Source of the DNA: Verrucomicrobiota bacterium
Lineage (GTDB): Bacteria > Verrucomicrobiota > Verrucomicrobiia > Chthoniobacterales > UBA6821
Assembly: GCA_008932965.1 (NCBI GenBank)
Contig: WBXG01000003.1
Location: 19,193 to 51,192, forward strand
DNA length: 32,000 nt
Reading direction: 5' to 3'
This document shows, in pieces, positions 6,436-32,000 of this stretch. Position numbers and translations under genes: made by a program. Below the pieces are notes generated by a model. The model made no database searches. It worked only from the letters and a program-made list of their open reading frames with translations, and was not told the origin of the DNA. Position 1 is the first letter of the stretch. Every line of letters begins with the position of its first letter.

Positions 6436-6504
6436 AGGTTCAGTATTTTATCGCAGAAGTGATATTGACTCAAATGCAAACTCCTAGAAGAAGCAAATAA
6501 GGGG

Positions 6505-6758
6505 TTAACCCGCATATTTCATACTGGTTCGTCGTGAGGCGCCGCGAATCCAGATGCAGACACCACCGGCGGTCGGGAGACTGCGGTGGAGACTGCCCTG
6601 AAAGGGCGAGACGAGCGGGAGCAAGCGAGTCAACGAAGGTGATGGATTGCGACGACGGCTGTATGTCTCATACTGCCCGAGGAGCAATTCGAAGCTGACG
6701 CAGTATCCATCAGGTTTTCGCAAGCCGCAGCAGAATCGGTATGAAATAGGCGGGTTAA
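6505..6758 (+). mobile_element. MITE-like repeat, copy A (long variant, 254 bp)
   Basis: Ends TTAACCCGCATATTTCATAC (6505-6524) and GTATGAAATAGGCGGGTTAA (6739-6758) are inverted repeats. Central stem GGATTGC 6644-6650 / GCAATTC 6684-6690. Homologous to copies at 13139, 17244, 23673, 27664 and 31856. Carries extra GC-rich internal sequence, approximately 6545-6640, that the shorter copies lack. Confidence 0.9.
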
Positions 6759-6790
6759 CTCTTTTTGATCGTTTGATGAGAACGCTTCTA

Positions 6791-8152
6791 TTAGGGATCT
6801 GGAACAACCTTTCTTGCTTTTTCAGATGCACGTATGACATCACGGTAGTAAAAAGCAGAAGATTTTAATTTTCTTTGGAAAGTTTTTTCATCCATTGTTG
6901 CCAATCCGAATTTGGGAACATATCCGTAGTGCCACTCATAGTTATCCGCTAGTGACCAAATGAAGTACCCTTTGACATCGTATCCTTCTTCACGTGTTTT
7001 TTGAAGCTGTGCAATGTGGTCATGAAGATATTCAATCCTCTTTTGCTCATTTAAAGTGGCTATTCCATTTTCTGTAATCATCATCGGTTTATCATAGCGC
7101 TTTCCAATTTGACGAATCAGTTTCCCAAGAGCTGGTGGATCAATATGCCATCCCATCATGGTAAAATGAGTTCCACGATGACTTCCTTGAGTTAACATGC
7201 TCAGAGGACCGGCTATCTGACTGTAATAATAATTAAATCCAATGATATCACAGACGTCGTAGATTTTATCAAGATGATCAAACGCATTGTGCTCAACCGT
7301 GTTGTATATCATCCCACCAGGATCAAGTGGACCATGATACCAGTAAGGAATAGCCTCTATGCTTACAATTTTCGCATCTGGTTGGATTTCTTTAATACGA
7401 GCAGCAGCATCACGGAAAAAGTCAGCACTAACAGCAATGGCTTGTTTATAACCTTGAAAATCTAAAGTGTGATTGGGGGGCCATAAGCCCACGATGTAAG
7501 CAGTTAAAATTTGACCATTGGGTTCATTTTGAGGCGCGTAATAAGTGGCATAGGGAGCCATCTCCTGGACCATTCTAGAAACATAGCGATTCCAATGTGA
7601 GCGTGCTAAAGGATTCAACCAATTTGTATTTGCACCATTTTTTTTGTCCACCAACCAAGAAGGAAACGTAAAATGCCAGAGACAGACGTAGGGCTCAATC
7701 CCAGCTTCCTTGAGCTTCCGTACCATCGCAACATAGCGATGAATTGCTTCCTCGTTGTACTCCCCCGGACGAGGTTCAACACGGGCCCATTCAATACTAA
7801 AACGATAGGAATTAACCCCAATTTTTTTGAGTGCTTTAAGATCCTTATCAAAATGAGACCAGCTGTAGAGTGCGTTACCAACAGGAGGAGCTTTCTTATC
7901 TTGAACCAAAATATCCCAATCACGCTCAAAATATTCTTTTGTTCCCGATTTTTTAGAACGATCCTCATACTGCAAACTACTCGTTGAGATCCCCCAGGCA
8001 AAAGGGTGATAGCCACTATTTTTTGCAGCTTGATGCCTTGGTGCTTTATCAAGAGGTCCTAAAGGGTGCAATGCACAACCGGTAAGAAAAAATAAAATCA
8101 CTAATACTGAAAAAAAATAACATCGCATCGGTTTGGTTTTTAGAAATGTCAT
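6791..8152 (-). CDS. Glycoside hydrolase family 1 protein (beta-glucosidase-like) with lipoprotein-type signal peptide
   Basis: GH1 acid/base motif APQNEPNG and nucleophile motif MITENGIA. N-terminal LVILFFLTGC lipobox-like signal. The longest ORF extends to 8188, but the ATG at 8152 avoids overlap with the upstream gene (stop at 8160). Confidence 0.85.
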   Translation of the reverse strand: MTFLKTKPMRCYFFSVLVILFFLTGCALHPLGPLDKAPRHQAAKNSGYHPFAWGISTSSLQYEDRSKKSGTKEYFERDWDILVQDKKAPPVGNALYSWSHFDKDLKALKKIGVNSYRFSIEWARVEPRPGEYNEEAIHRYVAMVRKLKEAGIEPYVCLWHFTFPSWLVDKKNGANTNWLNPLARSHWNRYVSRMVQEMAPYATYYAPQNEPNGQILTAYIVGLWPPNHTLDFQGYKQAIAVSADFFRDAAARIKEIQPDAKIVSIEAIPYWYHGPLDPGGMIYNTVEHNAFDHLDKIYDVCDIIGFNYYYSQIAGPLSMLTQGSHRGTHFTMMGWHIDPPALGKLIRQIGKRYDKPMMITENGIATLNEQKRIEYLHDHIAQLQKTREEGYDVKGYFIWSLADNYEWHYGYVPKFGLATMDEKTFQRKLKSSAFYYRDVIRASEKARKVVPDP

Positions 8153-10449: not shown

Positions 10450-10466
10450 GCATATTTCATACTGAT
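10450..10466. repeat. Short fragment of the repeat-family terminus
   Basis: GCATATTTCATACTGA is identical to the left-end motif of copies at 17244 and 21741. No matching partner end was found in this spacer. Confidence 0.4.
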
Positions 10467-10727
10467 TCTTAGTGAATCTCTGAGCAGCATAATGCAGTCA
10501 GAATAGTGCATGCTAATCATGGCAAGGAAGAAAGTGCCCCGCAATGCCGTTAAGGATGCTAAACCGTTCCATTAAGAAAAGGTGGATATCGCTAATCGAA
10601 ATGCTGAAGTCCAATAAAGGCATGTCATTATTTCGTCTAGTAGAGATTTCCGTAATGTTTTACATAGGTCCGGGAGCAATATATACCGGTATCTCGAACA
10701 CCGCAGGGCATAGAGATGCTAATGTAT

Positions 10728-13138: not shown

Positions 13139-13299
13139 CTAACCCGAATATTTCATCCAGATCTACTACGGAAGCCGGGAAGCCAGATGGATGCTGGGCA
13201 GTATGAGCCCTACCGCCCCAATCACAATTCGAGAGCAACGTAGTAGCCATAGAGCGTTACACAAGTCGTAATAAATGGAGTATGAAATATTCGAGTTAA
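13139..13299 (+). mobile_element. MITE-like repeat, copy B (161 bp), in the pheS-pheT spacer
   Basis: Ends CTAACCCGAATATTTCAT and ATGAAATATTCGAGTTAA. The left arm CTACGGAAGCCGGGAAGCCAGATGGATGC is the reverse complement of the arm seen at 17037-17065. The core GCTGGGCAGTATGAGCCCTACC...ATCACAATTCGAGAGC is shared with copies F and G. Confidence 0.9.
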
Positions 13300-14366
13300 A
13301 ACTCCCCAGCAAATCGTTTTAAAAATCGAAGGTCATTTTCGCTGAGCATCCGAATATCAGAAATCCCAGTTAGGATCATGACAAGGCGCTCCAAGCCAAA
13401 TCCAAAGGCGAAGCCTGAAATCTTTTCAGGATCATAGGCCTGATCACTACGTTGTTGATTCACTGCCTCAAAAACGGAGGGATCGACCATACCGCAGCCA
13501 GCAAGCTCTAGCCATTTTTCCTCCTTGAGAAACTCAGCTTTGAAAGAAGCAGGAGTGCATTTTGAAGCTAAGAAAGCAGGCTTAACGCGCACATCGATTT
13601 CAAAGCTTGGCTCAGTAAAAGGGAAAAAATGCGGCCGAAAACGACATTCTGTCTCGGGTCCAAATAACTCACGAAAGAAAAACTCAGCCGTTCCTTTTAA
13701 ATCTCCAAGGGTAATGCCCTCTCCCACGCAGAGAACTTCCATTTGAGTGAATTGAGATAAATGGGTTGCATCAATTTCATCACGTCGGTAGGCCGCCCCA
13801 GGGGCTATGATACGCAAAGGTGGTGATGTTTGTTCCATCGCCCGAATCTGAACAGTGGAGGTATGCGTCCGTAGCAGGCGTCCATCAGGAAGATAAAAAG
13901 TATCTTGCTCCTGACGTGCAGGATGATCAGGCGGGGTATTGAGGGCATCAAAGCAATGCCACTCATCATCGATATCAGGTCCTTCAGCTATCGCAAAACC
14001 GAGACGACGAAAAATCTGTACGATACGATTGGTAAGAAGGGTGAGTGGATGTAGAGCCCCTTGCCATGAAGCTGTTCCTGGCAAGCTCGGATCCAGTGAC
14101 GCAAAGGAAGCTTCATCAGCTTGATCCAGGAGCATTTTTTCTTTAGCCTCAAGAACCTCGGTAAAGCTATTTCTCCATTGGTTTAGGAGTTGTCCTATCG
14201 CAGGTCGCTCCTCCTTGGAAAGAGTACGCATTTGCTCACTTAAGCAAGAAATAGCACCACTCTTTCCAAGATAATGAAGACGTACCTCTTTAAGCGCAGC
14301 AGCATCAGAAGCTGTTTTAATGGCAGCTAAGGAAGCATCTTGTTGTTGTTGAATCAAAGATTTCAC
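13296..14366 (-). CDS. pheS: Phenylalanine--tRNA ligase alpha subunit
   Basis: 356-aa ORF with a GTG start. Class II aaRS motifs (FRPHFFPFTEPS, GFAFGFGLERL) and a C-terminal NDLRFLKRF typical of PheS. The TAA stop (13296-13298) lies inside the terminal TTAA of repeat copy B. Confidence 0.95.
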   Translation of the reverse strand: MKSLIQQQQDASLAAIKTASDAAALKEVRLHYLGKSGAISCLSEQMRTLSKEERPAIGQLLNQWRNSFTEVLEAKEKMLLDQADEASFASLDPSLPGTASWQGALHPLTLLTNRIVQIFRRLGFAIAEGPDIDDEWHCFDALNTPPDHPARQEQDTFYLPDGRLLRTHTSTVQIRAMEQTSPPLRIIAPGAAYRRDEIDATHLSQFTQMEVLCVGEGITLGDLKGTAEFFFRELFGPETECRFRPHFFPFTEPSFEIDVRVKPAFLASKCTPASFKAEFLKEEKWLELAGCGMVDPSVFEAVNQQRSDQAYDPEKISGFAFGFGLERLVMILTGISDIRMLSENDLRFLKRFAGEF

Positions 14367-15486: not shown

Positions 15487-17043
15487 TTAATAGGCTATCT
15501 TGGGTTTAAATGTAGCCGCTTCTTTTGAAAGCAGATGACCTGTGACTTTACCAGGAGCCCCCAGGCTCTCTTGTACTACTTTTGATGATGGTGCGGTCGA
15601 TCCTACCGCTAGTGCCAGGGCTGCTAGTGTTGTAGAATAATCAGAGACAGCTGTTGCTAATTCTGATTGTGCTAAACTTAAATTACTTCCCGCCTCAGAA
15701 TAATCGGTCACATTTGCAAGTCCTGTTTCTGTTGCAGCACTAATAGAACGAAAGAATTCATTTGCTGATGCAACAAACCCTTCTGCGTACCCGACTCTCT
15801 CTGCAGCCGCAAGACTGTTATTATAAGCAGTCCAAACATCACGCGTTGTATCAAGTTGCGTCTCTCTTAATTTTTGTTCTGCCACTTTGTCCTCCTCTTG
15901 ACGACGCTTCATTTTAAAGACACGATCAAATCCATCAAAGAGATCCCAATGTGCCGTTACATAAGCACTTCCGTAGGGAACACCCACTCCATTAAAGTAG
16001 CCATTAGCAGTAGAGTTGGGTTGAAAGCCCTGATATCCAAACGTTGTATTAGCATATTGACTTTCTATTTTAATGGTTGGGAAAAAATCAGACATGGCTC
16101 TTTTTGTTGCTTCTTTACTGGCTTTAAGCTCCTGCACTCGTGCTGCAAGATCAGGACGCAAGCGGAGAGCTTCTTGAATCAGTTCATTGGCATCACCACG
16201 TAATTTTTTTGTGGAGGGAGGTTTTTCTGATTCCACAAACTCCAATGGACTATTTGCAGGAATGCCGACAGTGATACAGAGCTCTCCTAATGTATTGCGC
16301 ACAACGGCAATTGCGGACTCTACTTCATATTGAGATTCGAGAACACGTTTACGTGCTTTTAATTCCTCGGGGTCTGCAGTGAGTCCGGTAACTCTTTGAC
16401 GAACAATCATGTCACTTAATGTTTGAGTAAAAACAAGATTGGCTTCGGCTGCTTTTTTCTTCCAAAGGGCTGCTTCATATGAAAAATAATTTTTTTGAAC
16501 ATTAAAAATGACCTCTTGTAATGTACGTTGATAAGTAAGTCCTAGGGCGTGAAAAATTGCGATCGTACGCTGCACATCAGCATCCCTTCTCCCAAAATCA
16601 AGCAAGATATATTCCATGCTTAAAAAAACGGTAGCCTGAGTGCGATTTGCTCCGTTGGGTCCTGTTACAGGGATAAGATAGGATTGATCGTATCCCCCCA
16701 CAAAATCGGATCGTACCCAGGGATAATAAAGAGAACGAGCTTCCCCTACCGATGCAGAGGCTGCTTTGGCCTGACTCCATGCAGCCCGAGTCATAGGATT
16801 ATTTTTGAGAGCTAAATCAATAAGGCTTCCCAAGTGATACTTTTCATTAGGATGAAAAGCAGCAGCTAAGGCCGCTTCATGAGAAATAAAACTTTTATCT
16901 TTAGGAGAAGAAAATAAATTTTTGCCCGAGGGATCGATGACTTCTACCGCAAAGACAGGGGAAAAAAATGCCGCAACGATCAAAAGAAATAGGGATTTTT
17001 TATACCAATCACCTACGGAAGCTGGAATGCTCGAAGCATCCAT
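15487..17043 (-). CDS. TolC-like outer membrane efflux protein (OMF family)
   Basis: Two-repeat OEP architecture with long alpha-helical, coiled-coil-like segments. A signal peptide (KKSLFLLIVAAFFSPVFA) follows the ATG at 17043. The longest ORF starts at 17112. Both candidate starts lie in repeat-derived sequence. Confidence 0.8.
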   Translation of the reverse strand: MDASSIPASVGDWYKKSLFLLIVAAFFSPVFAVEVIDPSGKNLFSSPKDKSFISHEAALAAAFHPNEKYHLGSLIDLALKNNPMTRAAWSQAKAASASVGEARSLYYPWVRSDFVGGYDQSYLIPVTGPNGANRTQATVFLSMEYILLDFGRRDADVQRTIAIFHALGLTYQRTLQEVIFNVQKNYFSYEAALWKKKAAEANLVFTQTLSDMIVRQRVTGLTADPEELKARKRVLESQYEVESAIAVVRNTLGELCITVGIPANSPLEFVESEKPPSTKKLRGDANELIQEALRLRPDLAARVQELKASKEATKRAMSDFFPTIKIESQYANTTFGYQGFQPNSTANGYFNGVGVPYGSAYVTAHWDLFDGFDRVFKMKRRQEEDKVAEQKLRETQLDTTRDVWTAYNNSLAAAERVGYAEGFVASANEFFRSISAATETGLANVTDYSEAGSNLSLAQSELATAVSDYSTTLAALALAVGSTAPSSKVVQESLGAPGKVTGHLLSKEAATFKPKIAY

Positions 17044-17091
17044 CTGACTTCCCGGCTTCCGTAGGTAATCGCGATGAAATATCCGGGCTAG
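17012..17091 (+). repeat. Partial repeat-family copy C (right arm plus inner part of left arm)
   Basis: GCATCCATCTGACTTCCCGGCTTCCGTAGGTAATCGCGATGAAATATCCGGGCTAG matches the arm at 30884-30941 and the reverse complement of 13139-13190. There is an internal perfect 11-bp inverted repeat, 17012-17022 / 17055-17065. A further terminus fragment GAATATTTCATACT lies at 17102-17115. Confidence 0.75.
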
Positions 17092-17243
17092 AACAATGAG
17101 TGAATATTTCATACTTCTTGATTCATTAATGAGAGGTCATTGAAAGAGCGATGTGCTAGAAAAATATCAATTTTTTTGCCGGTTCTTTCAAGAGTGAACC
17201 ACCAGATAGACTTAAAACATAAAGGGATCCTTCTGTGGTAACA

Positions 17244-17359
17244 TTAGCCCGCATATTTCATACTGAAGTGTCATGAGGCGCCGTGCAAAGCTTATTAGGA
17301 CCAGGTACGTGAGCCTTCGCGACCTCCTCTTCATGATCAGTATGAAATAGCTAGTTTAA
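17244..17359. mobile_element. MITE-like repeat, copy D (minimal 116-bp form: two arms, no central core)
   Basis: Left end TTAGCCCGCATATTTCATACTGAAGTGTCATGAGGCGCC. The right end ...CCTCCTCTTCATGATCAGTATGAAATAGCTAGTTTAA is its imperfect inverted repeat. The reverse complement of the right arm resembles the left arms of copies at 23673 and 31856. Confidence 0.85.
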
Positions 17360-18893: not shown

Positions 18894-19915
18894 GTTCACT
18901 CAAAGCAACAGTTAACAACGAGGCAACTACCTTCGCTCTCTCTGCTGCTTTTGGAACCTCTATTACCGTCTTCATTGTAGAAGCATTACATGTTCCTAAT
19001 GCTTACATTGCACTCAGCTTGTCGGCCTCCCTCTCGCTCCTGCCAGTCCCATCGTTTCAAGGTTTTCTTTTTCGTATAGGATCTGTCACTTTAGGAGTGA
19101 TTAGTGCTGTGCTACTGATGACGCTACTCTCAGAGTCACCTTGGGTTTATTTTTTCTTGATAGGGTTCATCAGTGCAGTTGGGTATATTTTTTTTTTAAA
19201 TCGTTTGGGTACAGGTACAGCATACGCATTTAGTGCTTATTTTGCAGCGATGTGTATTGAGGCCATTTTTGGCATTTCATCTAGCGATGTAGTCATGGAT
19301 GCTCTTCAATTATTATCTCAATCAATTATTCCAATCATCGTCACCTATGGAGTGGGTCTGATTTTACAAAGAACATTGATTGCCACAAATAATCCCTCCT
19401 TGCGCTCCCCTCTTGCTAGTGTCATTAGCATTGCTCTTGTTGTTTTCACCTCCATTATTGTCGCTCTTTCTATTAAGACAGGTGAATCTACCCGGCTTAT
19501 GATTGCTAGCATTGCTGGCATAACCAATCTAGAACTCGAGCGCTCTAAAGAAGCATTTGCAAAAAAAATGGTAGGGTATGTTTTGGGAGCAATAATTTCG
19601 ATTTCCTATATTGTCGCTTTTGTGGCATGGACCAATGATTTTGGCATTTATCTTCTTAGCCTAGGCTGCCTCTTTGGATTTTTTGAGTGGTTAGCTCACT
19701 ACTATGTTTCACAACAATTACTATTTCGTGCCATCAGCACCATGTTTTCTTACTCGGTGCTCATGCTACCTGCACCTGATAGTAACTTACATGTTAGCTT
19801 GGAGCGAGTTGTCTCGAGCTTGATTGGTTTTTCTATTTCAATTGCTATTTTTCTTCTCATGGAAGAAGCACAAAAAATAACCCAATTTATGATTCACCCC
19901 AAGAGACAGGAATGA
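18890..19915 (+). CDS. Polytopic inner-membrane protein, FUSC/ArAE-like (putative efflux component)
   Basis: 341-aa ORF with about 10 hydrophobic segments. Sits in the position of aaeB after the adaptor gene, with an ATGA overlap at 18890-18893. About half the length of AaeB. Family assignment is tentative. Confidence 0.45.
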   Translation: MSSLKATVNNEATTFALSAAFGTSITVFIVEALHVPNAYIALSLSASLSLLPVPSFQGFLFRIGSVTLGVISAVLLMTLLSESPWVYFFLIGFISAVGYIFFLNRLGTGTAYAFSAYFAAMCIEAIFGISSSDVVMDALQLLSQSIIPIIVTYGVGLILQRTLIATNNPSLRSPLASVISIALVVFTSIIVALSIKTGESTRLMIASIAGITNLELERSKEAFAKKMVGYVLGAIISISYIVAFVAWTNDFGIYLLSLGCLFGFFEWLAHYYVSQQLLFRAISTMFSYSVLMLPAPDSNLHVSLERVVSSLIGFSISIAIFLLMEEAQKITQFMIHPKRQE

Positions 19916-21740: not shown

Positions 21741-21780
21741 CTAGCCCGCATATTTCATACTGAAGTGTCATGAGGCGCTA
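21741..21780. repeat. Truncated repeat-family copy E (left arm only)
   Basis: 21742-21778 is identical over 37 nt to 17245-17281 (TAGCCCGCATATTTCATACTGAAGTGTCATGAGGCGC). Similarity ends at CTAA (21778-21781), which contains the mutL stop codon. Confidence 0.85.
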
Positions 21781-27663: not shown

Positions 27664-27828
27664 TACATATTTCGCCCACTTCAAGCAAAACTTTACTGCA
27701 AGACGCTCCAAGGATTGTGATGCCAGGCTGTATGAGTCCCTACCAACAAAATCACAATTCGAGACTAATGCAGTAATGATGAGCTTTCCACAAGCCATAA
27801 TAAATTTAGTATGAAATAGGCGGGTTAA
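27664..27828 (+). mobile_element. MITE-like repeat, copy G (left arm degenerate)
   Basis: 27710-27828 aligns closely with 23739-23857 (copy F), including the stem GGATTGTGAT 27712-27721 / ATCACAATTC 27751-27760 and the terminus GTATGAAATAGGCGGGTTAA. Upstream only a weak CATATTTC remnant (27666-27673) marks the left end. Confidence 0.8.
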
Positions 27829-30296: not shown

Positions 30297-30881
30297 TTGA
30301 AACACGAAGTATCATTATCAATTTTAAAAATAACTATTACTCTTTTCATGATTCCTCACACATTGCTACTACTTTTATTATTAGAAATAGCGACTGTATC
30401 ACTCAGCGCAGCTGAGACAGCAACCTCAGCTATTCAGGCGCTCAGTGATTCAGGCCGACCTAACATGATGTCTGCAGTAGTAGAGATCAGGGGGGCTCAT
30501 GGAGAGCCACAACCCGAGGAATGGGTCATCATTTGCAATGATCCTACGGCACAAGGAGGAATCCGTGAATTAACGATCAAAGATCATCATATTATTTCCG
30601 AGCGAACACCTCTTTGTAGTTTTGAGGGTCAAGGGTCTTTACCGCAGCTTGACACTACTCGTATTACCATGGATTCCGGAACGATTTTTAAGGCTGCTAA
30701 TACCGAGGCAAAAAATCATCGTATTGGATTTGACGCTCTTACCTACACCATAAGAACGGACGCACTTACGGGCAAACCTCTTTGGATTGTACAACTTTAT
30801 AAAGCCGAGAAAAATGATGAACGGCTTGTTGGAACATTACAATTCTCTCCAGAAACGGGAGCTCTTATTAAGGGACTCTAA
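30297..30881 (+). CDS. Secreted hypothetical protein
   Basis: 194-aa ORF (TTG start at 30297, alternative ATG at 30348) with a hydrophobic N-terminus (LLLLLLLEIATVSLSA). No motif recognised. Its TAA stop lies in repeat copy H. Confidence 0.5.
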   Translation: MKHEVSLSILKITITLFMIPHTLLLLLLLEIATVSLSAAETATSAIQALSDSGRPNMMSAVVEIRGAHGEPQPEEWVIICNDPTAQGGIRELTIKDHHIISERTPLCSFEGQGSLPQLDTTRITMDSGTIFKAANTEAKNHRIGFDALTYTIRTDALTGKPLWIVQLYKAEKNDERLVGTLQFSPETGALIKGL

Positions 30882-30941
30882 TGCAGCATCCATCTAGCTT
30901 CCCGGCTTACGAGGGTGATCGGGATGAAATATCCGGGTTAA
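30878..30941 (+). repeat. Partial repeat-family copy H (right arm)
   Basis: CTAATGCAGCATCCATCTAGCTTCCCGGCTTACGAGGGTGATCGGGATGAAATATCCGGGTTAA aligns with 17037-17091 and with 31977-32000. Confidence 0.8.
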
Positions 30942-31837
30942 CTCTTGTCATCCTTGCTGCGGGAATGGGAAGTCGATATGGAAAATTGAAGCAACTTGAC
31001 CCTGTGGGACCAGATGGTGAAGCGCTCCTTGATTACTCCATTCATGATGCTGTACAAGCTGGTTTTGGAGAAATCGTTTTCGTAATTAGAAAAGAAATTG
31101 CACACCTCTTCGAGGACCATATTGCGAGTCGCTACGCAAAACAGTATCCAGGAATTACGATTCGTTTTGCTTTCCAAGAACTCAAGGATCTTCCAAAACC
31201 ATTTTCACTTTCTAGAATGCGCTCGAAACCTTGGGGTACGGGCCATGCTCTTCTTGCGGTGCGTCATTTGGTGACCTCAGCTTTTGTGGTTATTAATGCT
31301 GATGATTATTACGGCCCATCAGGTTATCTCCTCTTAAAAGATTTCTTATTACAACTCTCTCTCTCTATTTCAAATGGTGAACAGGATCAAAATAGGTATG
31401 CCATGGTTGCTTACTTGCTAAAAAACACGCTCAGCGAGCACGGTAAAGTCTCTCGAGGAGTTTGTAGGGCCACACAAGATTATTTCATGATTGATATTAC
31501 CGAACAGACCTCGATTCATAAAACAGCTGAAGGAATCGTCTCTGATAACAAAGAGGGTTCTAGCATCATGCTCACGGGTGAAGAATGGGTCTCGCTTAAT
31601 TTTTGGGGATTTACTCCAGCTATTTTTTCATTTTTGGAGAAGGAATTTACTGATTTTTTAACCTTCCATTTAGATGATCCAAAAGCGGAGTTTTATCTCC
31701 CTTCAGTTGTGAACAAAATGATTCATGAAAAAAGTGCTTCCGTAAAACTCCTTCCATCACAAGACCCGTGGTTTGGCCTTACGCATCCTTCGGATTTAGT
31801 GCATGTCAAGAATGCTCTCCTATCTCTGAGAAATTGA
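30881..31837 (+). CDS. Sugar-phosphate nucleotidyltransferase family protein
   Basis: 318-aa ORF with the N-terminal LVILAAGMGSRYGKLKQL glycine-rich NTP-binding motif. The first ~20 codons are repeat-derived. Confidence 0.75.
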   Translation: MQHPSSFPAYEGDRDEISGLTLVILAAGMGSRYGKLKQLDPVGPDGEALLDYSIHDAVQAGFGEIVFVIRKEIAHLFEDHIASRYAKQYPGITIRFAFQELKDLPKPFSLSRMRSKPWGTGHALLAVRHLVTSAFVVINADDYYGPSGYLLLKDFLLQLSLSISNGEQDQNRYAMVAYLLKNTLSEHGKVSRGVCRATQDYFMIDITEQTSIHKTAEGIVSDNKEGSSIMLTGEEWVSLNFWGFTPAIFSFLEKEFTDFLTFHLDDPKAEFYLPSVVNKMIHEKSASVKLLPSQDPWFGLTHPSDLVHVKNALLSLRN

Positions 31838-31855
31838 TCCGAAGAGATATGCGGG

Positions 31856-32000
31856 CTAGCCCGGATGTTTCATACTAATCGTGACGAGGAGGCCGCGAAG
31901 GCTGATGGGGTAAGGCAGGCGAGTATTTTGATGCAGGGCTGTATGTGTACATACTGCCCAAATCAAAATGGGAGTCTAACGCAGCATCCATCTGACTTCC
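31856..32000 (+). mobile_element. MITE-like repeat, copy I (cut by window end)
   Basis: Left end CTAGCCCGGATGTTTCATACTAATCGTGACGAGGAGGCCGCGAAGGCTGATGG resembles copy F. Central stem ATTTTGAT 31925-31932 / ATCAAAAT 31962-31969. The right arm begins CTAACGCAGCATCCATCTGACTTCC, as in copies C and H. Confidence 0.85.

Follow-up and report, generated by a model that had tools for sequence, protein, structure and literature searches.

Can a conserved enzyme gene take its 5' end from a mobile repeat and remain functional? The question is raised by a 32-kb window (the whole stretch of DNA analysed, 32,000 nucleotides; window coordinates below refer to its position 1) from an uncultured Chthoniobacterales-like member of the Verrucomicrobiota, in which a hypothetical gene and a sugar-phosphate nucleotidyltransferase-like gene meet at a partial repeat, copy H, the solo right arm of a 180-nt MITE (miniature inverted-repeat transposable element). 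A first-pass annotation had proposed that copy H supplies both the stop codon of the upstream open reading frame (ORF) and the only usable start codon of the next, so that the first ~20 residues of the enzyme and its initiation site would be element-derived. The comparative analysis leads us to a modified account, which we consider likely: a MITE inserted near the start of the gene, a microhomology deletion followed, and a TAATG start was thereby joined in frame to the enzyme. The element would thus probably have contributed an in-frame bridge and not the start and stop codons themselves. The argument turns on five overlapping features:

30348-30881, plus strand: upstream hypothetical gene, 177 aa as called (mechanical ORF from TTG 30297), with stop codon TAA at 30879-30881
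30872-30883, plus strand: junction zone GGGACTCTAATG, holding the stop TAA and the ATG; likely deletion breakpoint
30875-30941, plus strand: copy H, the 180-nt MITE's solo right arm, which closes with the right terminal inverted repeat (TIR) ATGAAATATCCGGG and the target TTAA (30938-30941)
30881-30940, plus strand: leader codons 1-20 (MQHPSSFPAYEGDRDEISGL), in the arm's only stop-free frame
30881-31837, plus strand: sugar-phosphate nucleotidyltransferase-like gene, 318 aa, with its native part from ACT 30941 (T21)

Junction, leader and ancestral gene start

The geometry of the junction follows from a direct reading of the sequence and from the ORF list. CTAATG occupies 30878-30883, the upstream ORF stops at TAA 30879-30881, and ATG 30881-30883, which shares one base with that stop, opens the 318-codon ORF ending at 31837. 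This one-base overlap is exactly as the first-pass annotation had described it, and the codons and peptide that it listed (MQHPSSFPAYEGDRDEISGL) are equally exact. Its statement that no ATG, GTG or TTG lies in frame between this ATG and the nucleoside triphosphate (NTP)-binding motif is borne out as well: none is present within codons 30884-30964, and the first later in-frame ATG, at 30965, encodes the methionine of the NTP-binding loop LAAGMGSRYG. The ATG internal to the repeat (30924) lies in another frame and stops at TAA 30939, within GGTTAAC. Among the rare start codons of translation table 11, those in frame are ATA 30929, CTT 30944 and ATC 30950, the latter two inside strand β1 of the enzyme. 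The protein, and with it this arrangement, occurs on at least 19 contigs that derive from different samples, projects and assemblers, which excludes an assembly artefact.

Copy H genuinely belongs to a dispersed repeat, and its resemblance to the other copies is not due to chance. Within the window, identity is 86% across 56-57 nt with both 17035-17090 and the reverse-complemented stretch 13140-13196, and an nhmmer profile built from seven other right arms, with copy H left out, matches 30875-30941 with E=3.3e-14. No promoter-like and no ribosome-binding signal was seen in copy H, and nothing convincing as a promoter or terminator was detected between the upstream gene and the nucleotidyltransferase. 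Folding of 30850-30970 gives z=-0.63 and thus no indication of RNA structure at the junction, where Rfam recognizes no family either, its sole match in the window being a 6S RNA elsewhere. Shine-Dalgarno sequences are mostly absent in this genome (upstream regions of 15 called genes), so a new AUG might be usable with little else, and translational coupling at the TAATG overlap is plausible.

Downstream of the leader, the protein matches known nucleotidyltransferases. It scores 30.9 bits against PF12804 (cut-off 27) and 26.4 bits against PF00483 (cut-off 21.2), and the match to PDB 3pnn (E=6.8e-74) begins at residue 21, the first residue of strand β1 (residues 21-25). The NTP-binding loop LAAGMGSRYG is encoded at 30953-30982, and residues G30, S31, R32, Y33 and G34 are invariant among 20 aligned homologs, this protein included, so all invariant residues are present. 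None of the NCBIfam equivalogs reaches its cut-off, and 'UTP-glucose-1-P uridylyltransferase' is a source label only. The AlphaFold2 model has a mean predicted local distance difference test (pLDDT) score of 87, with residues 1-16 below 50; the leader is accordingly modelled as what would be a tolerated disordered tail preceding β1.

How the gene began before the repeat arrived can be seen in relatives that lack it. The mlaE-mlaF-mlaD-hypothetical-nucleotidyltransferase-icd block, in which the upstream hypothetical gene is the fourth member, is syntenic in these relatives, except that the hypothetical gene is lacking in L092 (L numbers designate the loci compared). In L093 (59% identity), ...GALIKGL TGA TGA is followed by a 46-nt spacer and ATG ACT CTC ATC, encoding MTLIILAAG. 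In L086 (63% identity), TAA TGA TGA is followed by a spacer of ~70 nt and a proximal ATG AAT AAA CTC ACT CTT, encoding MNKLTLV. L084 and L085 have spacers of 130-150 nt and other upstream ATGs. Furthermore, most aligned homologs start with M-x-(L)TLV(I/V)LAAG, and the distant homologs listed (n=80, 42-48% identity) align only from about query residue 21. The short native starts and the homologs aligning from about residue 21 together mark the 20-residue leader as derived, and the native start lay one to four codons before T21. Consistent with the proposed element origin of the leader, the repeat-free orthologs compared have N-termini that are short and different (MTLIIL in L093, MNKLTLV in L086), and no repeat-less ortholog with the same 20 N-terminal residues was found.

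The element-free junctions yield no significant nhmmer match to the repeat (best E=1.7, L085 2998-3018; none in L084 or L086). A decayed version of the same insertion was considered for L084, L085, L086 and L092, in whose upstream ATG regions TTTTCTNATGAARCAAC somewhat resembles CTAATGCAGCA, but it is unsupported, with E=1.7 at best. The spacer has other features of its own in these relatives. An unrelated long palindrome (gggtcaatccggcctattggca ... tgccaataggccggattgacc) lies at L085 2890-2985, and repeats seem to have landed more than once in the spacer between the hypothetical and nucleotidyltransferase genes. A GC-rich hairpin directly follows the upstream stop in L084 (263-300) and L085 (2850-2870) (GAGGCTGCACTGCAGCCTC; GCTCTTGCTACACAAGAGC); it may act as a terminator or attenuator and is gone from the window lineage, in which both genes now overlap.

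The derived junction is not private to the window species. L001 (80% protein identity, equal length) carries this arm as well, in the corresponding position and again with TAATG. Across the five lineages (the window species, L001, L095, L094 and L109), TAATG plus the first 17 nt do not differ, nor do CTCTAATGCAGCATCCA and ATGAAATATCCGGGTTAACTCT, and the ORF is intact in each lineage. Between the window and L001, the ratio of non-synonymous to synonymous substitution rates (dN/dS) is 0.17 at dS 0.65 for core codons 21-318 (298 codons). By the same comparison it is ~1.5 for leader codons 1-20, where all 12 substitutions change the amino acid and neither an indel nor a stop codon has appeared. 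Nucleotide-level constraint on the conserved ends of the leader (17 and 22 nt) was considered as well and, by our estimate, is not significant, there being too few synonymous sites. As the junction is older than the split and the core has been under purifying selection in both lineages, a dead gene is ruled out. The untranslated pseudogene, which the first-pass annotation had named as one outcome that would speak against its proposal, was thus not encountered, and a functional enzyme gene with an element-derived 5' end is well supported by these comparisons.

Two further loci, L094 (3998-4241) and L109 (reverse strand, 717-960), are independent assemblies of strains close to L001 and carry a longer version of the leader, with the layout TAATG-arm1-TTAA-[full 180-nt element]-TTAA-gene. 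A 378-aa ORF runs through the whole element, and a full in-frame copy before β1 is therefore tolerated; the layout also identifies TTAA as the element boundary. Arm1 reads CTAATG and arm2 reads CTAACG, the two differing at 3-5 of 64 nt. Arm2 carries the lineage-specific substitutions of copy H, which fits either gene conversion or ancestry.

Origin of the stop/start overlap

Which parts of the overlap came from the element? The stop codon need not have. Whether or not they carry the repeat, all orthologs terminate the upstream protein at the same ...KGL* residue, and the position of its C-terminus, ...FSPETGALIKGL*, is conserved in L001, L084, L085, L086 and L093; the stop is therefore at its ancestral position, and the repeat is not needed to supply it. 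The ATG, too, is probably native and not, as had been proposed, repeat-borne. At the corresponding position, the consensus of the element subfamily is ACG (CTAACG in most of 16 metagenome copies), and T(G/A)ATG, that is, a stop codon followed by TG, is present in three of the four element-free orthologs. The native ends of the upstream gene read GGACTTTGATGA in L093 (GGACTT TGA TGA), GGGTTGTAATGATGA in L086 (GGGTTG TAA TGA TGA) and GGGACTGTGATGG in L085 (GGGACTG TGA TGG), the TG being the beginning of a second stop codon, TGA, in L093 and L086. Immediately 5' of the arm, the element interior has the sequence AAAATG(G/T)GAGTCTAACGCAGCATCC, which is shared by copy I, the full copy of L094/L109 and the majority of the metagenome copies. 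The sequence of copy H is GGGACTCTAATG|CAGCATCC. The native end and the element interior (GGGAGTCTAACG) are identical at 10 of 12 positions, and at both positions that discriminate between them (C30876 and T30882) copy H bears the native base. The most economical reading would be that the TAA and the TG completing the ATG are native, with element DNA from ~30884. Hence, of the earlier claim that the first ~20 residues are element-derived, the part concerning residues 2-20 and the location of the initiation region in repeat DNA stands, and the part concerning the ATG itself probably does not.

These observations can be assembled into a history. A 180-nt MITE with the target TTAA or CTAG would have inserted at TTA|ACT, in codons ~3-4 of the nucleotidyltransferase gene, before the window species and its sister species diverged from their shared ancestor. 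Because the element length is a multiple of three and the element landed in its one stop-free frame, the gene would have stayed open. Such an in-frame full-element stage may be illustrated by L094/L109 and by the in-frame copy in L110 (see below). Later, a deletion between two near-identical 12-nt stretches, GGGACTCTAATG where the upstream gene ends and GGGAGTCTAACG in the element interior, would have brought these together and taken out the native spacer along with the native start codon and the element's left two-thirds; the position of the junction within this near-identity suggests deletion by microhomology. The ATG formed by TAATG would thereby have been linked in frame to β1 via 19 element-encoded codons, and the enzyme would be made with a disordered, sequence-unconstrained leader of 20 residues. 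Initiation might be direct or might proceed by termination-reinitiation at TAATG; initiation at 30881 would give the N-terminal peptide MQHPSSFPAYEGDR. Repeat identity, the ancestral state, junction conservation and purifying selection on the core are the fixed points from which we infer the order of events, the microhomology deletion and the actual use of ATG 30881.

Several points weigh against this history. Two nucleotides, and orthologs whose protein identity is 59-64%, form the basis for assigning TAA and ATG to native DNA, and a minority of element copies do have ATG at that position (elements F and G of the window, listed below, and L099). An intermediate combining the native spacer with a full element was not found among the loci compared, and L094/L109 is compatible both with an ancestral tandem and with an element that re-inserted later at the same TTAA. 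The left flank of a site in L001 that we take as empty with respect to element I (see below) faintly resembles an element end. Finally, the use of ATG 30881 is deduced from the sequence: 60 nt without stops or indels are weak evidence for translation, and the leader dN/dS of ~1.5 would also fit an untranslated leader with a rare start nearer β1 (ATA 30929).

The first and last of these points each lead to an alternative. Everything from 30872, with the TAA and the ATG included, could be element DNA, the ATG having arisen by an ACG>ATG change or from an ATG-bearing variant and the match to native sequence being coincidental. We consider this unlikely, though it deserves to be weighed: nhmmer aligns copy H to the arm profile from 30875, and variants with ATG exist, namely F (CCAATGCAG), G (CTAATGCAG) and L099 (CTAATGA). 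However, two substitutions would be needed relative to the subfamily consensus (G>C at 30876 and C>T at 30882), both recreating native bases; the upstream protein ends exactly at the ancestral residue; and the second arm of L094/L109, which is not fused to a gene end, reads CTAACG. Somewhat less probable again is a start at a rare codon near β1, best at ATA 30929 (MSGLTLV...), in which case the 48 nt after TAATG would be untranslated and open by chance. Such a start would account for the unconstrained central leader codons (dN/dS ~1.5; all eight changed codons non-synonymous) and for the length of the protein, since the ancestral protein begins 1-4 residues before TLV and MSGLTLV matches it. 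The extra 180 nt between TAATG and the gene in L094/L109, which cause no apparent harm, would likewise be easier to understand if initiation is proximal. Yet ATA, ATC and CTT are very poor initiators in studied bacteria, and CTT 30944 and ATC 30950 are less likely still than ATA 30929, as initiation at either would truncate β1. Moreover, none of the five lineages departs from the shared TAATG and first 17 nt, and the 60 nt have remained indel-free at dS 0.65. Even at ATA 30929, which is also within the element arm, the start would still be element-derived.

Much the least probable explanation is that the gene was decapitated by the insertion and persists as an untranslated pseudogene or relic. 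A canonical start is indeed missing near the conserved motif, as are a Shine-Dalgarno sequence and, between the genes, any promoter-like site; Shine-Dalgarno sequences are, however, mostly absent genome-wide anyway, and a relic is hard to reconcile with a core dN/dS of 0.17 over 298 codons, an intact ORF in all five lineages, the complete set of invariant residues and the confident AlphaFold2 model. Thus, insertion followed by microhomology deletion, with TAATG as the new start, is the account that we prefer.

The MITE family and known repeat-gene fusions

About 10 copies or fragments of the element are present in the 32-kb window. Besides copy H, they include:

6503-6760, plus strand: element A, a full copy with an internal insertion of ~70 nt and the TIRs TTAACCCGCATATTTCATACT / AGTATGAAATAGGCGGGTTAA
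13139-13299, plus strand: element C, the left arm of which is the inverted counterpart of copy H
16993-17091, minus strand: element D1, a short hairpin-type copy over the 5' end of a TolC-like gene (15487-17112, minus strand)
17244-17359, plus strand: element D2, an internally deleted copy
21741-21778, plus strand: element E, a solo left arm of 37 nt that matches the D2 left arm (17245-17281) at 100% identity
23672-23857, plus strand: element F, a full copy of a second subfamily (CCAATGCAG)
27710-27828, plus strand: element G, the right two-thirds of a copy (CTAATGCAG), upstream of mlaE
31856-32000, plus strand: element I, a full 180-nt copy at CTAG in the spacer before icd, which runs off the window; the remainder was taken from L088 10976-11159

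Further copies are found in L085, L088, L089 and L092, and 16 in metagenome contigs. Eight distinct full copies each span exactly 180 nt, counted from one target to the other and corresponding to 178 nt plus a duplicated TA, and contain no transposase gene. The TIRs follow (A/G)CCCG(G/C)ATATTTCATAC, or, written as a pair, TTAACCCGCATATTTCATACT / AGTATGAAATA(G/T)GCGGGTTAA; they are supported by the inverted pairs I7, I8 and I17 (21/21) alongside the arm alignment. All well-defined ends are TTAA or CTAG (YTAR). The flanks of the L110 copy, GACG-TA-[178 nt]-TA-ACATCA, are consistent with a 2-nt TA duplication, and the tandem copies of L106 have one TTAA in common. A filled and an unoccupied site can be compared for element I: the window and L088 read ...GGGCTAG[element]GGGCTAGATTC, and the orthologous CTAG is unoccupied in L001 (...AGGCTAGATTC; caggCTAGattc; ATTCAGGCTAG). 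The TTAA beside copy H allows a second comparison of this kind, L094/L109 having a full element there and L001/L095 none. The left flank of element I, ATATGCGGGCTAG (window 31844-31859), duplicates the last 13 nt of its right end (L088 11147-11159). This suggests a solo end fragment beside a full copy, a pattern like that of L094, and a mechanism that may be recurrent. Taken together, these are the features of a MITE with an IS630/Tc1-like target, the putative superfamily assignment being made from the target site only. Rfam contains no match to the repeat, and literature searches returned neither a described MITE of Verrucomicrobia nor a description of this element.

Only one frame of the arm is free of stops. 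In full copies, frame 0 is open across 60 codons in seven of the eight distinct examples, and the other two frames contain 2-8 stops. A Monte Carlo simulation gives ~4.4 of eight copies expected open by chance, against the seven observed, the copies not being independent of one another, and substitutions in the open frame show no codon periodicity (0.123/0.143/0.117). Given the lack of periodicity and an excess of open copies that is not significant in view of this non-independence, we do not argue for selection on the encoded peptide.

In-frame copies within genes are seen in L110, L114, L094/L109, at copy H and in the TolC-like gene. In L110 (reverse strand, 7362-7545), the 60 stop-free codons of a full 180-nt copy separate the membrane/deacetylase part of a 1248-codon open frame from its GT2 glycosyltransferase domain. 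L114 (reverse strand, 1285-1341) has a right arm (...TQHPSIFPASAGDRDEISGL...) embedded in frame within a hypothetical ORF that spans at least 616 codons. The TolC-like outer-membrane gene of the window reads through D1 in the frame equivalent to that of copy H (..IPASVGDWYKKS..). The only in-frame ATGs (17112, and ATG GAT GCT at ~17044) that precede its hydrophobic signal core LFLLIVAAFF fall within element DNA, and its positively charged n-region, WYKKS, corresponds to a decayed terminal repeat; the orthologs P0127-P0131 have unrelated signal-peptide starts. A functional host protein for an in-frame copy is supported for copy H only.

The fusion at copy H is of a kind already known and is not categorically new, whereas the MITE family is undescribed in the literature found. 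Delihas (2011; PMC3184786) reviewed in-frame fusions of repeats with ORFs, 5' extensions (BOX/RUP/SPRITE and BRE) among them, and left open whether such fusions are stable or transient. As in those cases, a small dispersed open-frame repeat joins a chromosomal coding sequence and lengthens its 5' end; unlike them, copy H replaces the native start of a conserved enzyme, and the fusion has persisted across a species split (dS 0.65). As far as our searches show, the element family is also unrelated to those repeats. Other systems covered by the same review share part of this picture. Neisseria REP2 carries a promoter and a ribosome-binding site as well as an ATG, and Correia elements are TA-duplicating MITEs (PMC3184786). 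Both are comparable as dispersed repeats from which downstream genes receive expression signals, but copy H, which shows no such signal, gives coding sequence, and its ATG is probably native. Nezha of Anabaena/Nostoc is an IS630/Tc1-mariner-derived MITE, and ORF fusions are reported for Anabaena MITEs (PMC3184786). It is likewise a short TIR element with a TA-centred palindromic target (CTAG/TTAA) and with filled and empty orthologous sites; the difference is that the superfamily of the MITE described here is assigned by target site only. MIRU (Supply et al. 1997, in PMC3184786) are, as summarized there, repeats of 40-100 bp, often in tandem, with a small ORF of their own and ends overlapping the adjacent cistrons. 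By that summary, they too are intercistronic repeats overlapping stop and start with the same translational-coupling geometry, but copy H is a single partial arm without an ORF of its own; the upstream stop is all that it overlaps, and its other side has become part of the downstream gene.

A further parallel is offered by the palindromic elements of Rickettsia (RPE; Ogata et al. 2000, cited in PMC3184786), which sit inside Rickettsia genes. As the review describes them, they share with the present family a length that is a multiple of three, a stop-free frame and in-frame copies in protein genes (here L110 and L094/L109). Against the same description, the present MITE differs in having TIRs and a TA/YTAR target duplication, in that most of its copies are intergenic and in showing no codon periodicity. 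A broader reading is that this frame-open, TA-targeting MITE of uncultured Chthoniobacterales-like Verrucomicrobiota is RPE-like and has been built into proteins repeatedly, the start at copy H having been made from native TAA plus TG by microhomology deletion. We put it forward tentatively, as possible but with the odds leaning against it. Its candidates would be the N-terminus of the nucleotidyltransferase, the n-region of the TolC signal peptide, the deacetylase-glycosyltransferase linker and the internal segment of the large protein.

In either case, copy H offers a clean and datable example of a gene that would have survived the loss of its own start codon through a mobile-element bridge to a fortuitous ATG. 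As the fusion has been kept through a species split under purifying selection, it bears on the question of stable versus transient fusions left by the review. It also has a practical side: gene callers will annotate N-terminal extensions of 20-80 residues (the 318- and 378-aa versions) that are transposon sequence outside the enzyme fold. More generally, a dense and previously undescribed MITE family, repeatedly overlapping gene ends, is present in uncultured Verrucomicrobiota.

Gene ends and surroundings of other copies

Two further copies in the window meet the ends of genes. The right-end TTAA of element C (13296-13299) contains the TAA stop of a minus-strand ORF (13296-14366), and element E abuts the stop codon of mutL, which is on the minus strand (CTA on the plus strand, 21778-21780). 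Overlaps of this type with gene ends are to be expected, because both targets, TTAA and CTAG, include a stop codon and a deletion can be tolerated no further than the boundary of a gene.

A 26-nt fragment of the element left end (10450-10475) lies ~60 nt from the 6S (SsrS) RNA gene of the window (10532-10712, minus strand; Rfam RF00013, 55.4 bits, E=1.3e-08). Elsewhere, two assemblies of the same species, L089 (19064-20957) and L088 (19071-20957), diverge downstream of an element copy (~18996-19074), with an amino-acid permease and a topoisomerase following it in one assembly and dnaB and rplI in the other, a difference that could reflect either rearrangement or misassembly at the repeat.

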